A DNA stretch of 64,000 nt from assembly GCA_038045825.1 (NCBI GenBank), contig JBBSXJ010000004.1, positions 182,185 through 246,184 on the forward strand, written 5' to 3'. The position numbers were made by a program, and so were the translations under genes. The stretch is from Nanobdellota archaeon (GTDB lineage: Archaea > Nanobdellota > Nanobdellia > Pacearchaeales > GW2011-AR1). Of this stretch, positions 1,433 to 32,971 are shown piece after piece. Below the pieces are notes generated by a model, which was given only the letters and a program-made list of their open reading frames with translations, searched no databases and had not been told where the DNA came from. Position 1 is the first letter of the stretch. Each line of letters opens with the position of its first letter.

Positions 1433-1762
1433 ATGGAGACCTTTAAGTTTTTGCTTTTTGGTTTCTTTTCTGTTTTTCTTGTTGCTTCTTTAGTTGTTGC
1501 TCAGCCTGCTAGTGAGATTGTGAGGGATGAGACTTTTGTGCCTGTTTCTTCAGCATTTGTTGGTTGTCGTGATAATGGCTGTTTTGTTGCTAGTATGACT
1601 AGTATGCTTGCTTCTCTTAATGATACTCAGATTGGAACGAATACGACAGCTATTCTTAGTGAGTTGAATGTTACATTAGTTAGGTATAATGGAGGTAATT
1701 ATCCTTTTCCGACTTATGTCGTTGTTGAAGCAGCAGTAAATTTTTTAATTAATTTAATTTAA
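1433..1762 (+). CDS. secreted protein resembling the N-terminal (Cys) half of a C39/papain-like peptidase
   Basis: Signal peptide; NGCFVASMTSML resembles the GCxxASxxMxL nucleophile helix. Confidence 0.55.
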   Translation: METFKFLLFGFFSVFLVASLVVAQPASEIVRDETFVPVSSAFVGCRDNGCFVASMTSMLASLNDTQIGTNTTAILSELNVTLVRYNGGNYPFPTYVVVEAAVNFLINLI

Positions 1763-27358: not shown

Positions 27359-29680
27359 CTAGAAAAGTTTCTTTTGTTTTGAATTCTTTAGTATATCTTC
27401 TGTTGATGTGTTGAAAAAGTGAAGTATCGTATCAGCTATAGGGGTTATCTGCTTCTCTATATAGTGTTCATAGTCTATCTTATGTTTTAACTTTTGAACC
27501 GGCTCAGGACCATTTTTAGTTATATAATATTCTATTATGTTTGATTCTAAATTATCCAGTAATCTTGCTGCTTTAACATGAGGGGGAGTTGTTTTAGTAT
27601 ACTGGTCTAAGTCTTTTCTTATTGACTTTCTGTAAACTAGTTTTTTGTCTAATTTTCCTTGATTTATTTTTTTAATGTATTCTTTTATGAATTGTATTGG
27701 GTCTTCTTTGTGGAATATTTTGTTCAATAATTCTATTTGGAAGTCTTTTGCAGCTTCTGTCCAATCTCCACGGATTGCTTCTAGACCTACTATTTCTAAC
27801 TCTTCTTTTCCATCTTTTTCTATAAGTCCAGCATATCTTTTCTTTGAACCTGTTTCTAATTTTGCATTTCTCACTTTAGGAAGCATAAATGCTTTGTAAT
27901 ATTTCTTGAATTCTAGTTCAAGATATGATTTTCTATCATATTTTTCTTTTATGTAATTATTGTAAAAATCATTTATGTATTTTTGAATCTCATTTCCAAT
28001 TTCTTTTGGATTCTTTTTAGAGTTCATTTTTAGAAAGACTGAATCAGTATCTGAATATATTGTGTTAAGCCCCATTTCTTCTATTTTTTTTGCTGTTAAT
28101 TGAATTAGTTCCTGACCGAAATGAGTTATCGCATTTGCCATGTCAAGACTAAAATATCTGCAATTTGGAGACGCAAGAACACCAAAAAACGAATTCATTA
28201 TTATTTTTATTGCATAACTCGATAATTCTCTGTTTTCTCTTTTTGCTTTTTCCCTTTCATTGTGTAATTTTTCTATTATTTCTGGGAGAATTCCATTATC
28301 ATTTCTAAAATATGCTTTATTTGGAGACTCTATTGAATTCTTTTCTTTTTTTTCAAGCATTGAAATTGGGTCAATGTTAAATGTTTTTATTATGGATGGA
28401 TACAGTGATTTGAAGTCCAGGACTAAAACATTCTCGTATATTCCTGGAATTGGTTCCATTACATAGCCACCCTTTATTCTTTCTTCTTTTTGTTTGTAAT
28501 GGAGTGTTGGAGATACTATTCCTCTCTTTCTTGCTTCTCTTATATATAGAGAATCAAATGCAACTATTGAACCTGTTAATTTGTTTATGGGCAATCCTAT
28601 AAGTGTAGTTCTCTCTATCGCTAAATCTAAGATTTTTGTTTTTGTTAGTAGATTATATGCTAACTTGCAATCTTGTATATTGTATTTTATTAGTTTTTCT
28701 TTATCCTTTTTATATAATATTTCTATTTCATCATGTCTATCTTTTCCAGAAATTAATTTTCCCTCTCCAAGCATTACTTGAGATACATTTTCTAAGGTGT
28801 AAGATTCAAACTCTTTATTCTTTATTGATGGAGCTTCTTGTATGAATGGGTCCTTTATCAAGTTTAAACCATCTAGGACTTGTCTTCCTGGAATTTTTGC
28901 TGTTGAGCTTCTGAAGAAGTTATTTTCTATTTTTATTCTAACATTTTCATTTGTTCTTCCTATGTCAAAACTTATGTTGTGCTCTTCAAATTTTTTCTTT
29001 AGATAGTTTAAGTCAAAGTCGATTACATGCCATCCTGTAATTATATCAGGGTCAAATCTTTCTATTTCTGATTTGAATTTTACTAAAAGCTCTGCTTCTG
29101 TTTTGCAGGCTATTGCTCCTTTTACTTCTTCTTTGCTTACTATGAAGCTTTTCTCATAATTATGGCTGTATAAACCTATACAGAATAAGTCTCCTCCTTT
29201 TTTGTCGGTTTCTATGTCTAATGATAGGACTTTTAATTGAATATCTGATTTTGATGGTTTAATTATTGGATTTTTGTATACAACATCTACTTTTTCTGCT
29301 GTTTCTGTTTCGCCAGATATTTCTATTACGCTGTAAATATCATTATCTATTAGGTATCTTAATGTAGGGCTTAAGTCTGATTCGTATGTGTTTATTTCTT
29401 TTTGATGAACTGCTTTTACTATCTTTGTAATGTCTGTTTTATTTTCATGAGATATTTTTAGTACTTTTTCTTTGTTTTTGTTAACAAGATCTGTTTTTTC
29501 TATTTTACAATTTGTTAGTACATTTTTTGCTTTTTGCAAGTCTGTTTCTCTGATGTAAAAGTACTGTGTAAATAGTACAACTGCTGCGAATGATTTCTCA
29601 TTCTCCAGGCGACCAAATATTTGGATGTAAGTCTTTTCATCTTGAGATATTGATGATATATTTACAATGTAACCTTTCAT
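27359..29680 (-). CDS. polB: family B DNA polymerase (bacterial Pol II-like)
   Basis: Exo I DIETD, DFKSLYPS, KIIMNSFFG, YSDTDS, KKRYAG; C-terminal PIP-like QKKLF. Confidence 0.95.
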   Translation of the reverse strand: MKGYIVNISSISQDEKTYIQIFGRLENEKSFAAVVLFTQYFYIRETDLQKAKNVLTNCKIEKTDLVNKNKEKVLKISHENKTDITKIVKAVHQKEINTYESDLSPTLRYLIDNDIYSVIEISGETETAEKVDVVYKNPIIKPSKSDIQLKVLSLDIETDKKGGDLFCIGLYSHNYEKSFIVSKEEVKGAIACKTEAELLVKFKSEIERFDPDIITGWHVIDFDLNYLKKKFEEHNISFDIGRTNENVRIKIENNFFRSSTAKIPGRQVLDGLNLIKDPFIQEAPSIKNKEFESYTLENVSQVMLGEGKLISGKDRHDEIEILYKKDKEKLIKYNIQDCKLAYNLLTKTKILDLAIERTTLIGLPINKLTGSIVAFDSLYIREARKRGIVSPTLHYKQKEERIKGGYVMEPIPGIYENVLVLDFKSLYPSIIKTFNIDPISMLEKKEKNSIESPNKAYFRNDNGILPEIIEKLHNEREKAKRENRELSSYAIKIIMNSFFGVLASPNCRYFSLDMANAITHFGQELIQLTAKKIEEMGLNTIYSDTDSVFLKMNSKKNPKEIGNEIQKYINDFYNNYIKEKYDRKSYLELEFKKYYKAFMLPKVRNAKLETGSKKRYAGLIEKDGKEELEIVGLEAIRGDWTEAAKDFQIELLNKIFHKEDPIQFIKEYIKKINQGKLDKKLVYRKSIRKDLDQYTKTTPPHVKAARLLDNLESNIIEYYITKNGPEPVQKLKHKIDYEHYIEKQITPIADTILHFFNTSTEDILKNSKQKKLF

Positions 29681-29740: not shown

Positions 29741-30220
29741 ATGGACTTTTATTGGGTTTTTGTGGTAACTAGAGATATAGCAAATATGGAAGCGGATAGA
29801 TCTGGAGCCATGAAGTCAGGAGATGCTTTGAGATATCATATTTTATGTGTTGAACTTAATTATGGTCAACATGCAATAGAAGACATAGAATTATTCTTGA
29901 GAGGCAAATCTCTCAAAGAAGAAACCAATATAGGAGGGGATATGGAAAATATTGAAATAATATCTCTTGATGAAGTTGAAGACGATGTTATTTTAAGTGC
30001 ATATAGGATAGTGCGTCCTATTATAAACAATCCTGATTGGAGAAAAGAAGGATATGCTGCTGAATTAAAGAAAAGGCTTAGAATGATTAAGGCTACAGGA
30101 TATCCTTTAGAGTCACATGGTTCTTCTGATAATCTTGAGGTAATAGTTTCAGCTTATACGAATACAAAAGGAACTATTCTTCAACAAGTTTTAAGGAGGG
30201 GACTTAAATACAAAAAATAA
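29741..30220 (+). CDS. hypothetical protein
   Basis: ORF only; start uncertain. Confidence 0.55.
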   Translation: MDFYWVFVVTRDIANMEADRSGAMKSGDALRYHILCVELNYGQHAIEDIELFLRGKSLKEETNIGGDMENIEIISLDEVEDDVILSAYRIVRPIINNPDWRKEGYAAELKKRLRMIKATGYPLESHGSSDNLEVIVSAYTNTKGTILQQVLRRGLKYKK

Positions 30221-30467: not shown

Positions 30468-31484
30468 ATGGGTTTGCAAATAGGTGATTTGGTTAATCGT
30501 AAGGAGGTTGCTTTTAAAGATTTGAAAGGCAAGACTGTTGCTGTTGATGCTTTCAATGCAATATATCAATTTCTTTCTTCTGTAAGGCAGCCTGATGGAA
30601 CTCCTTTGATGGATTCTTCTGGAAATATTACTTCTCATTTATCTGGATTGTTTTATAGGAATATTGCTTTGCTTGTTGAAGGTCTTAATTTGATTTATGT
30701 TTTTGATGGAGAATATCATATATTGAAGGGAAAGACTCATGAAATTCGCCAAGCTGCTAAAGATAAGATGACTGAAAAATATGAGAAAGCCCTGGAAGAT
30801 GAAGATATTGATGGAATGGGTAAATACTCTAGAGGCTTTATGAAACTTGATACTAAGATGATTACTGAAAGTAAAGAATTACTTGAGGCTATGGGTATTG
30901 CTGTTGTTCAAGCTCCTGGAGAGGGGGAAATGCAGGCTGCTGAGATTGTTAAGTCAGGTCAAGCGTATGCTGTTGCTTCTCAAGATTATGATGCTTTGGT
31001 TGTTGGAGGTACAAGATTAATTCAAAATTTGACTTTGTCCCGCAAGAGAAAAACTGTTTCTGGTTTTGTTTATATTGCTCCTGAAATGATTGAATTTGAG
31101 AATGTAATTAATCAGTTAGGTATTACAGGAGATCAGCTTATTTGCTTAGCTATTCTTGTGGGAACTGATTTTAATCCTGGTGGTGTAAGGGGAATAGGTC
31201 CAAAAAAGGCTCTTGCTCTTGTAAAGCAGAAAATTTATCCCGTTGCAATATTCGAAGATGTTGTTGAAAGACATGGAGATTTAGGATTTAACTGGAAAGA
31301 GATATTTGAAATTTTTAAGAAACCAAATGTTTCAAAGCATAAGGTTGTTTTTTCTAAGTTTGATGAGAAAAAGATTAAGGAGATATTAGTTGAAAGACAT
31401 GAGTTCTCTGAAGAAAGAGTTGAGAATCAAATTGCTAAATTACGTGAGCTTCATTCTAAGAAAGGACAGATGAGTTTGTTTTAG
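30468..31484 (+). CDS. fen: flap endonuclease 1
   Basis: DAFNAIYQFL, APGEGE, SQDYD, GTDFNPGG; C-terminal PIP box QMSLF. Confidence 0.97.
   Translation: MGLQIGDLVNRKEVAFKDLKGKTVAVDAFNAIYQFLSSVRQPDGTPLMDSSGNITSHLSGLFYRNIALLVEGLNLIYVFDGEYHILKGKTHEIRQAAKDKMTEKYEKALEDEDIDGMGKYSRGFMKLDTKMITESKELLEAMGIAVVQAPGEGEMQAAEIVKSGQAYAVASQDYDALVVGGTRLIQNLTLSRKRKTVSGFVYIAPEMIEFENVINQLGITGDQLICLAILVGTDFNPGGVRGIGPKKALALVKQKIYPVAIFEDVVERHGDLGFNWKEIFEIFKKPNVSKHKVVFSKFDEKKIKEILVERHEFSEERVENQIAKLRELHSKKGQMSLF
31428..31484 (+). repeat. fen1 3' end, copy 1 of an imperfect direct repeat
   Basis: 48/57 nt identical to 32293-32349. Confidence 0.9.
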
Positions 31485-31523
31485 TATAGAAATTGATATA
31501 TATCTGATTATTTTATTTTTTAT

Positions 31524-32096
31524 ATGGAAAGAGGTGTTGGAGATAGAAATATTTTAGATAAATTTGCTTTAGAGTTTTGTGAAATTATGGAGAAATATGC
31601 TAAATATATTGTTGTTTCTGGTTTTGTTGCTATATCTCATGGGAGAAAAAGAACTACTGAAGATATAGATATGATTATTGAAAAAATTTCATTTGATAAA
31701 TTTAGATCTCTTCATGAAGATTTGTTTAGGAATGGTTTTCATTGTATGCAGTCTACTAAAATGGATGATGTCTATGATTATTTGATTCATGGAGATAGTG
31801 TGAGATATGTTAGACAAGGTACTCTTATGCCTCCTGAAATGGAAGTAAAATTTGTAAAAGATGAGATAGATGAGTTACAGATTATGACAAGAAAGAAACT
31901 TGAGTTTACTGGTTTAGATATATGGTTTTCTTCTATTGATTTTAATATAGCTTTTAAAGAGGAATTATTAAAGGCACCGAAAGATATGGAAGATGCCAAA
32001 CATTTAAGGATAATCTACAGAGATGAAATTGATGAAAATTTTATTAATGAAATTAAAAAAATGATTAGAATGTTGAGGTTGAACAAAAATGACTAG
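31524..32096 (+). CDS. nucleotidyltransferase (DUF6036/AbiEii-like)
   Basis: SGFVAISHG..RTTEDIDMI and KD..D motifs. Confidence 0.75.
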   Translation: MERGVGDRNILDKFALEFCEIMEKYAKYIVVSGFVAISHGRKRTTEDIDMIIEKISFDKFRSLHEDLFRNGFHCMQSTKMDDVYDYLIHGDSVRYVRQGTLMPPEMEVKFVKDEIDELQIMTRKKLEFTGLDIWFSSIDFNIAFKEELLKAPKDMEDAKHLRIIYRDEIDENFINEIKKMIRMLRLNKND

Positions 32097-32349
32097 AGAT
32101 AAATCACATATGGAAGCTGTTGAAAAGTGGGCTGAATTTGTTAGAATATCCCCAAGAAGTGAATGGAAGCATTCAGTGGATATGCTTATCAATGCTGTTT
32201 ATGAAAAAGCAGATGAATTTTATAAAAGGCTTGAAAAAACTGAAAAAGGACGTGAAATTTTGAAGAGGTTAAATGAAGATAAAATTAATAGTCAAATTGC
32301 TAAATTGCGTGAGCTTAAAGCTAAGAAGGGACAGACCAGCTTGTTCTAG
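32089..32349 (+). CDS. small helical protein ending in a FEN1-derived PIP-box tail
   Basis: C-terminus QIAKLRELKAKKGQTSLF versus FEN1 QIAKLRELHSKKGQMSLF. Confidence 0.75.
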   Translation: MTRDKSHMEAVEKWAEFVRISPRSEWKHSVDMLINAVYEKADEFYKRLEKTEKGREILKRLNEDKINSQIAKLRELKAKKGQTSLF

Positions 32350-32413
32350 TTTGTCATGACTCCATAGTTACTACAATAGAAAGATTTAAATAGTAAATAT
32401 TTGGACTATTTTT

Positions 32414-32971
32414 ATGACAATAGGAAGTTTTATTGGAAGACATAAGGGAAAATTGCTTGGATTAGCTCTTGCAGCTGGAGCATTTACTTGGGCTTATACG
32501 CGTCCAAATAGAGGTGAAATCCTTATAGTTGATGATATTCTTTATTCTGTTGGTATTGAGCAGGAAACAATATATAATGGGAAGTTGGGTAGTTGGAATG
32601 TCTTTTATGAAGAAAGAAAAGATGGTAATCATATGTCTGCCAAAAAAGGATCTGTTAGAGTACAATATACAGATGACGATGACTTTAAACCATTGAACTG
32701 GGATGCAAATGCTGGTTGGGATGATGAAAAGAAGAGACCTAAACCTCTTAATGGCAAGCTAGAGCATGTTGTTTTTACTGATAAAAAGGGCACTTTGGAA
32801 TTCTCACGTGCAGATATAGATGAGTCTACATATAGCTCGCGTAACAAGAATGAAGTATTTACTAATGCGAATGCACATTATGAAGCCTTTCTTAATGCTA
32901 TAATATTGGCTAAGCGTGGAGAATCTGACGAAGAACTTTCTAGATATTTAGAAGCAGTTAAGGGTAATTAA
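32414..32971 (+). CDS. membrane-anchored hypothetical protein
   Basis: N-terminal hydrophobic helix; TATA box upstream. Confidence 0.65.
   Translation: MTIGSFIGRHKGKLLGLALAAGAFTWAYTRPNRGEILIVDDILYSVGIEQETIYNGKLGSWNVFYEERKDGNHMSAKKGSVRVQYTDDDDFKPLNWDANAGWDDEKKRPKPLNGKLEHVVFTDKKGTLEFSRADIDESTYSSRNKNEVFTNANAHYEAFLNAIILAKRGESDEELSRYLEAVKGN

Follow-up and report, generated by a model that had tools for sequence, protein, structure and literature searches.

A FEN1-like tail on the small partner of a nucleotidyltransferase encoded behind fen1 in a Pacearchaeales archaeon

Introduction

How does a small protein of a toxin-antitoxin-like gene pair come to end in nearly the same residues as the replication enzyme FEN1? 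The question is raised by a genome of the order Pacearchaeales (Nanobdellota; assembly GCA_038045825.1), in which fen1 is followed by a nucleotidyltransferase (NTase) gene and then by an 86-aa open reading frame (ORF) whose last codons resemble those of fen1. We analyzed this locus in a window of 64,000 nt (contig JBBSXJ010000004.1, positions 182,185 to 246,184, forward strand; coordinates below are those of the window). The genome is a metagenome bin of 0.84 Mb in 16 contigs; the GC content of the window is low (~30%), and where relatives of its proteins are named, they are Candidatus Pacearchaeota and Nanoarchaeota. An initial annotation had proposed that an insertion into the 3' end of fen1 left the old tail fused to the second gene of a cassette, creating a small PCNA-binding protein. 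In the following, G000 denotes the genome of the window, other G numbers denote relative genomes, L numbers loci or contigs, P numbers database proteins and X numbers sequencing runs.

The explanation that we consider probable is that a two-gene module and a replacement fen1 end recombined into this site together, and that the old fen1 3' end was displaced and fused in frame to the partner gene as a young by-product.

A direct repeat of the fen1 3' end

The elements of the locus are as follows.

30468..31484, + strand: fen1, 338 aa (Pfam XPG_N and XPG_I), C-terminus QIAKLRELHSKKGQMSLF; its last stretch is G001-like, unlike the tail of the closest cassette-free relatives
31409..31485, + strand: direct-repeat copy 1 (repeat search, local alignment), the present and apparently replacement fen1 3' end
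31485..31523, + strand: module's left end, which precedes the NTase gene; G001 has the same first 18 nt, and G008 has the same first 14 nt after fen1
31524..32096, + strand: NTase gene, 190 aa, predicted MenT1/AbiEii-like fold
32089..32349, + strand: small partner ORF, 86 aa, overlapping the NTase ORF by 8 nt; C-terminus QIAKLRELKAKKGQTSLF
32089..32292, + strand: native part of the small partner, residues 1-68, modelled as three helices; homologues end 0-10 residues past residue 68
32293..32349, + strand: the tail QIAKLRELKAKKGQTSLF with its stop codon, the captured, displaced original fen1 3' end; it carries the lineage's QxxLF C-terminal PCNA motif
32274..32350, + strand: direct-repeat copy 2 (repeat search, local alignment)
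32350..32413, + strand: native fen1-downstream DNA, leading into a 185-aa gene at 32414..32971

The reading frames of fen1, the intervening ORF and the 86-aa ORF are as initially described. A repeat search delimited a 77-nt direct repeat (31409-31485 and 32274-32350; 81% identical, spacing 865 nt) of which both copies are in frame and both finish with TAG. Over its last 57 nt, the previously reported 48/57 identity was reproduced exactly, the codon differences being 4 synonymous and 3 non-synonymous. Because the local alignment score is 36.5, against a maximum of 12.5 over 200 shuffles, the repeat is not due to chance. A search of the whole G000 genome returned no third copy. Between the repeats, the 865 bp hold two ORFs only, with no recombinase or integrase, and no foreign-DNA composition signal was found across the module.

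The small-protein tail and the original fen1 end

The origin of the tail became apparent from a metagenome contig (L098) that encodes a FEN1 93% identical to that of G000 and has no module within 2.5 kb. Its FEN1 tail, QISKLRELKAKKGQTSLF, is identical to the small-protein tail in 17/18 residues and 50/57 nt (6 synonymous and 1 non-synonymous changes). The similarity continues into non-coding DNA: the 46 nt past the L098 fen1 stop are 44/46 identical to those past the small-gene stop, and only 10/46 identical to those past G000's own fen1 stop. The next gene downstream is the same in L098 and G000, and two relative genomes (G013 and G006) have the same downstream block directly after fen1. Because these three have it right after fen1, repeat copy 2 and the DNA beyond it are the original fen1 3' end. 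An origin of the small-protein tail from the old fen1 end is thus well supported by these alignments, in agreement with the initial proposal that the old tail was left on the second gene of the cassette.

Conversely, the DNA across the present fen1 stop is 59/61 nt identical between G000 and G001. The fen1 gene of G000 is mosaic, with some tracts like L098 and others like G001 (maximum chi-square 20.9 over 186 informative sites, reached in 0/5000 permutations); at each of the last 10 of these sites it is like G001. By this comparison the present fen1 tail is a replacement common to G001. The join in the small gene falls where the native end NEDKIN resembles the SEERVEN of FEN1.

The locus in other assemblies

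Since the genome is a 16-contig bin and G001-like DNA is present in the same water, we considered an assembly chimera or a collapsed repeat, the former having been named as a risk in the initial annotation. A single 16,081-nt contig from a different sample of the same study (run X3) covers 31000-32800 with 2 differences, though it may itself be the source of the DNA. In a second study (run X5), the left junction, from fen1 into the NTase gene, is crossed by a 323-nt piece (31429-31751), and the right junction lies within a 318-nt piece (32073-32390) that contains the whole small gene, the tail and 41 nt beyond. The repeat copies are merely 81% identical, and the gene order of G000 also occurs in G001, L090, L092 and L093. 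The locus is not an assembly artefact, and a chimera or collapsed repeat is hardly credible. Only contigs were compared between runs, and in contigs rare excised or empty forms are not visible. No RNA run was among those listed for 31300-32500, a result that is neutral as to expression.

The X5 population, which is equivalent to the database protein P0001, has a small gene that differs from that of G000 by E9D, A71V and 3 synonymous changes, with no indel. Because X5 and P0001 carry the fusion, it predates ~2% divergence and occurs in two studies. In a further run (X2), a G001-like contig was found beside a G000-like one in the same water (joint window 31502>32209); this contig agrees with G000 only in the fen1 end with the left junction and in the small gene's 3' half.

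A conserved pair of NTase and small-protein genes

The intervening gene had been annotated as a nucleotidyltransferase, and its structure model agrees. The AF2 model, built on an alignment with 15 homologues (pLDDT 91.2), gave MenT1 as the top Foldseek match against the PDB (8an4, E 6.5e-8, TM 0.64), followed by MenT3/TglT and MenT4, and so has the Pol-beta-like fold of MenT/AbiEii-type toxins. Across 15 sequences, residues S32, G33, E46, D47, D49, E107, K145, K153, D154 and D157 are invariant. They include the expected catalytic motif, S32-G33 ... E46-D47-x-D49, with downstream Lys and Asp residues, and appear equivalent to T39, D41, K137 and D152 of MenT1, a correspondence drawn without an alignment. 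These residues are compatible with an active enzyme. At the level of sequence, the protein is not a member of the curated MenT/AbiEii (DUF1814) family models: no Pfam or NCBIfam match was obtained at E up to 1, a PDB profile search gave 0 matches, PADLOC returned only a weak match to PDC-M21B (E 3.5e-4), and a distant homologue produced sub-threshold matches to DUF6036/DUF2204. Homologues of the NTase are present in 14 of 61 relatives, G000 included.

The small protein is predicted to form three helices (residues 2-20, 23-49 and 52-83), with a pLDDT of 59 for the last residue block. A fold search gave no structural match (best E 8.5), and sequence family searches (Pfam, NCBIfam, PADLOC, PDB profile) gave nothing usable; the label PF26477 is listed for database homologues. 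Each of the 16 loci examined has a short ORF that begins at the NTase stop or next to it, and the NTase and small genes are a conserved two-gene module. The toxin-antitoxin-like pairing noted initially is a conserved overlapping pair across loci. By analogy with MenAT1, in which a 68-aa helical MenA1 blocks two MenT1 protomers, and on the grounds of fold and pairing only, the pair presumably consists of a toxin and its neutraliser.

Alignment of the homologues, which the initial annotation had suggested, showed that they end at ~62-75 residues, shortly past a conserved TEKGRE-ILKRL stretch, without the tail. The small protein is tail-less in 14 of 16 genome loci (length 49-88 residues), and among 94 database homologues three carry a tail: P0001 (98% identical), P0030 (ending in QQTLF) and P0211. 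In a family sample, 63 of 401 genomes have a homologue, and besides G000's own none aligns past query residue 78 of 86. As judged from these alignments, the FEN1-like tail is not native to the small protein. A family that natively ends in a PIP-like (PCNA-interacting peptide-like) tail, its resemblance to FEN1 due to convergence or to gene conversion between neighbours, would be in keeping with the adjacency of fen1 and the small gene in many genera and with the faint likeness of the native end (EDR/EER...) to the SEERVEN of FEN1. Nearly all family members end tail-less, however, and the similarity extends over 46 nt of non-coding DNA that is found after fen1 in cassette-free relatives, a match that conversion of the coding tail by itself would not produce; we therefore regard this explanation as very improbable.

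The tail motif and PCNA

Among 2,223 ORFs of at least 50 aa in G000, five end in Qxx[LIM]F: those for PolB, FEN1, RNase HII, family-4 uracil-DNA glycosylase (UDG) and the 86-aa protein. By our own estimate, fewer than 1 would be expected by chance from composition. The second such PCNA client in the window is listed here.

27359..29680, - strand: family-B DNA polymerase (PolB; Pfam DNA_pol_B), ending in QKKLF, the same short C-terminal motif

The Q-x-x-L-F-COOH loci listed are 27359-29680 (-) and 30468-31484 (+) in the window and C5:129237-129905 (-) and C4:26727-27332 (+) in G000. In other families of the order, FEN1 keeps a longer QxxLxxWF end, so QxxLF-COOH is the PIP form of the family of G000. 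No recognised PCNA client among the G000 ORFs has a canonical C-terminal PIP (2 unrelated ORFs match it). The end of the small protein, QTSLF-COOH, carries the motif of the PCNA clients of its lineage.

We modelled the complex of PCNA (242 aa, 37-row alignment), which is encoded on G000 C3 (locus L060, 1498-2223), with the small protein in three runs with three controls. The complex scores were 0.67, 0.34 and 0.68 (median 0.67), and the best control scored 0.00; of 157 solved complexes, 116 attain the mark used for the median score, as do 2 of 215 mismatched pairs. Contacts agreed between runs by at least 78%, with a pLDDT of at least 57 for the partner. The partner residues predicted to touch PCNA (70, 73-74, 77 and 80-86) are all in the tail, and the modelled contacts on PCNA (39, 41-46, 123, 150-151, 192, 218, 233 and 235-240) correspond to the usual PIP pocket, the hydrophobic pocket under the interdomain connecting loop. 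The structure model suggested in the initial annotation thus places the tail where a PIP would be expected, and binding of the small protein to PCNA via its tail is plausible. The small PCNA-binding protein proposed at the outset finds its support, from motif exclusivity and docking, entirely in silico.

Recurrence at the fen1 3' end and fates of the tail

The arrangement is not confined to this genome. Of 27 additional loci, all from other genera, 16 have the small gene beside fen1, and 15 of these have the NTase gene in between. Because this gene order recurs across many genera, the fen1 3' end would seem to be a place where small NTase modules recombine repeatedly, and the insertion is not a unique recent one. 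The 14-18 nt after the fen1 stop are common to G000, G001 and G008 despite their differing cargo, which in G001 consists of an NTase 33% identical to that of G000 (BLASTP) with a small gene that has a G000-like 3' half, and in G008 of a 294-aa gene on the opposite strand. In L090, L092 and L093, the first 14 nt of the left module end are likewise found ahead of the NTase gene, either in full or with an absent or altered first base. A repeat of the fen1 end at the end of the small gene was significant (0/200 shuffles) in 4 of the 20 loci with both gene ends, the lengths by local alignment being 59 nt in G000, 28 nt in L090, 27 nt in G375 and 26 nt in G001; 14 of the 20 showed no repeat at shuffle p ≤ 0.02.

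A tail in frame with an intact QxxLF was found at three junctions: G000/P0001 (18 residues), L088-L090 (8 residues, NEERV being joined to RSAQESLF) and P0030. Neither P0030 nor P0211 gave a DNA context in the metagenome scan. The displaced fen1 end is gone in L093. When conservation of the fusion is examined as the initial annotation had advised, the result is mixed: P0001, L088-L090 and P0030 keep the tail in frame, G001 has a degenerate version, in G375 and G366 the frame is lost, and ~90 other homologues lack the tail. From these comparisons, the fusion is rare and lineage-restricted.

The changes between the captured tail and the L098 FEN1 tail do not demonstrate selection on the fused copy, since most of their history may predate the displacement. 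Nor do the mixed fates of the tail in relatives point clearly to selection.

In G375, an A-rich run (possibly a -1 slippery site) precedes the frame shift, and nothing supports frameshifting. The remnants in G375 and G366 lie at L069 about 1450-1500 (-) and L076 about 1700-1735 (+) and end in GGQKTLF* and ASQQTLF*, respectively.

Route of formation and alternative explanations

The proposed events can be set out from the present layout, in which the module lies between the coding end of fen1 and the native downstream DNA of that gene. The module would have arrived, or recombined in, together with a replacement fen1 3' end, and the original end (18 codons, the stop codon and native intergenic DNA) would have moved to the far side, where it would have been joined in frame to partner codon 68 at a short chance similarity (NEDKIN / SEERVEN). 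The likeliest route would be recombination anchored by homology within fen1 at the left junction and, at the right junction, an illegitimate join guided by microhomology, at a site that may be a spot of repeated gain, swap and loss of modules. The product would be an 86-aa protein whose third helix is extended by the clamp-binding tail of FEN1 and which, if made, would be expected in the PIP pocket of PCNA. The evidence so far makes the fusion a young, tolerated by-product restricted to its lineage. Its use by the cell or the module is possible; as the initial annotation imagined, it might hypothetically compete with FEN1 and PolB or deliver the NTase to the replisome.

Several observations weigh against this account. 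The G001 tail is in frame and has lost the Q (it ends in LRSLF), the G375 and G366 remnants are out of frame and overlap the small-gene stop or lie just past it, and L092 retains a decayed remnant, 35-55 nt past the native small-gene stop, in which the Q codon is lost. The tail-bearing P0211 is a 40-aa fragment. The count of 4 in-frame against 2 out-of-frame cases is not above the one-third expectation (~0.1 by our own binomial estimate), and one of the in-frame cases came from the protein database, which holds in-frame forms only. The tail is not a canonical Qxx[LIM]xx[FY][FY] PIP. PCNA-peptide complexes are textbook structures, and the docking result, which may merely mirror likeness to the solved ones, is for this reason likeness rather than proof of binding. 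The toxin and antitoxin roles are read from the fold, with no sequence family matched, and the gene order is the reverse of menA1-menT1. Finally, the history may have been either an insertion into an empty site or an older repeat from which later deletions produced the empty sites; the fen1 tree, which was built without the tail and cannot date the event, places G000, G001 and G008 in an unresolved fork.

Beyond a tolerated by-product, the tail might have been captured adaptively, with selection keeping it since it couples the module to the replisome; it might compete for PCNA with FEN1, PolB, RNase HII and UDG, park an antitoxin-toxin complex on the clamp, or sense stalled replication. Such a role would suit the intact in-frame QxxLF at three separate junctions (G000/P0001, L088-L090 and P0030), the occurrence of the fusion in populations of two studies, the docking model, and the motif positions of G000, which show no non-synonymous change relative to the FEN1 tails of L098, G011 and G013. 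Moreover, a tail at a MenA1-like C-terminal position need not disturb neutralisation, because the C-terminal 17 residues of MenA1 are described, in passages of the report on that protein (PMC10435456), as disordered, outward-facing and dispensable for antitoxicity. Yet the tail is absent from ~90 of 94 database homologues and from the other matches of the family sample (63 of 401 genomes with a match), the Q is missing in G001, the frame is lost in G375 and G366, in-frame forms are not in statistical excess, and the few changes in the G000 tail are equally explained by a young event. We regard adaptive capture as rather unlikely.

The repeats also invite comparison with a mobile cassette that lacks a recombinase and carries an att-like, fen1-like end, entering at the fen1 3' end by a single crossover and leaving via the repeats; on this reading, the tail would be primarily a recombination site and coding only secondarily. 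Repeats that end exactly at the fen1 stop in four lineages, the same 14-18 nt after that stop before three different cargos in G000, G001 and G008, and the patchy fen1 mosaic would all be explained, as would the G001 module, which agrees with G000 at the left junction and in the small gene's 3' half although its NTase is only 33% identical, both forms being found in run X2. Against it stand the two ORFs in 865 bp without a recombinase, the lack of a circular or empty-site joint in the contigs of four runs (blind to rare forms), and the 14 of 20 loci without a repeat at shuffle p ≤ 0.02, only 4 reaching 0/200. The copy-2 tail is moreover contiguous with native host DNA, which fits a host origin at least equally well, and a mobile cassette of this kind seems unlikely to us.

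With recombination of the module and a replacement fen1 end as the preferred explanation, the locus would show, base by base, how a single recombination step can carry a short linear interaction motif from a core replication enzyme into a protein unrelated to it. Should the tailed protein bind PCNA in the cell, the archaeal replisome would have a toxin-antitoxin-like module physically tied to it. If the tail is only a scar, the locus offers a clean natural experiment, with PIP-tailed, degenerate, frame-shifted and tail-less versions of one protein for comparison. In either case, a fen1 3' end acting in reduced genomes as a hot spot of small-module gain, swap and loss would bear on gene exchange in DPANN archaea. 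A broader and doubtful generalization is that recombinase-less toxin modules of Pacearchaeota repeatedly enter the fen1 3' end and thereby gain a clamp peptide that is kept for wiring them to the replisome. If true, the PIP-tailed partner might hold the neutraliser and NTase on PCNA, or compete with FEN1, PolB, RNase HII and UDG; replication state would be the trigger or target of the toxin, and a selfish module's own insertion scar would supply the short linear motif.

Comparison with known systems

Integrative elements targeting a gene's 3' end bring a replacement end and leave direct repeats. The G000 insert resembles them in that direct repeats of the target end flank it, fen1 is intact via a replacement end, and several cargos occupy the same spot. 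It differs in having no integrase or recombinase of its own, in its length of only 865 bp, in repeats that vary from 26 to 59 nt between lineages, and in that the displaced fen1 end became coding sequence of the cargo. In homology-facilitated illegitimate recombination, one end is anchored by homology and the other is joined at a few chance-similar bases. The G000 locus would fit such a process, with an anchor in the conserved, mosaic fen1 and the other end at a chance similarity; here, the process is deduced from DNA sequence. To our knowledge, DNA uptake and recombination are unstudied in these archaea.

The closest counterpart of the gene pair is MenAT1, for which parts of the published report describe the 68-aa helical MenA1 that blocks two MenT1 protomers, its 17 dispensable C-terminal residues, and menA1 genes that mostly lie upstream of menT1 (PMC10435456). 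The NTase model of G000 best matches MenT1, MenT3/TglT and MenT4, and in both systems the partner is short and all-helical, the G000 pair also being conserved and overlapping. The G000 pair differs from MenAT1 in several respects: searches with Pfam, NCBIfam and a PDB profile gave no sequence-level relation of the NTase to the MenT/AbiEii (DUF1814) proteins, no structure matched the small protein, whose gene lies downstream of and overlaps the NTase gene, the host is archaeal, and activity and toxicity are putative.

Small or accessory PCNA binders are known in archaea. According to portions of one account (PMC4929162), the 64-aa Thermococcales inhibitor of PCNA (TIP) prevents PCNA from stimulating PolB and Fen1 in vitro, its PIP being only proposed and N-terminal, and NucS and NreA bind to PCNA through a PIP at the C-terminus. 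The G000 protein would join them by its predicted binding. It differs from TIP in that its motif is C-terminal and has an origin traceable to the host FEN1's own tail, moved by recombination; no homology is expected. A limited literature search turned up no toxin-antitoxin partner of the MenA type with a clamp-binding (PCNA) motif, and no physical tie of such a module to the archaeal replisome.

Variation around fen1 and neighbouring genes

The islet that follows fen1 is variable (L040 of G009, L058 of G008:C109, L057 of G008:C4, L088/L090 and L092/L093). Depending on the genome, it contains HEPN and MNT-like pairs, a second MNT-like gene on the opposite strand, a 294-aa gene on the opposite strand, or nothing. 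Away from fen1, locus L005/L024 (G002:C7) has a small-partner gene beside a 44-aa NTase remnant and transposase-like fragments, and looks like a broken module. Two further candidates were rejected: a partial fen1 in G008:C109 (L058 3094-3330, 73% identical), taken at first as a second displaced end, is situated at the end of a contig, where an adapter-like artefact is found, and has neighbours of its own, so that it probably comes from a second population in the bin; and the apparent fen1 deletion in G010 is a run of N.

The ORFs that flank the locus, of 159 aa (29741-30220, +) and 185 aa (32414-32971, +), gave no family match in Pfam or NCBIfam. Cassette-free relatives have the 185-aa gene in synteny with fen1.

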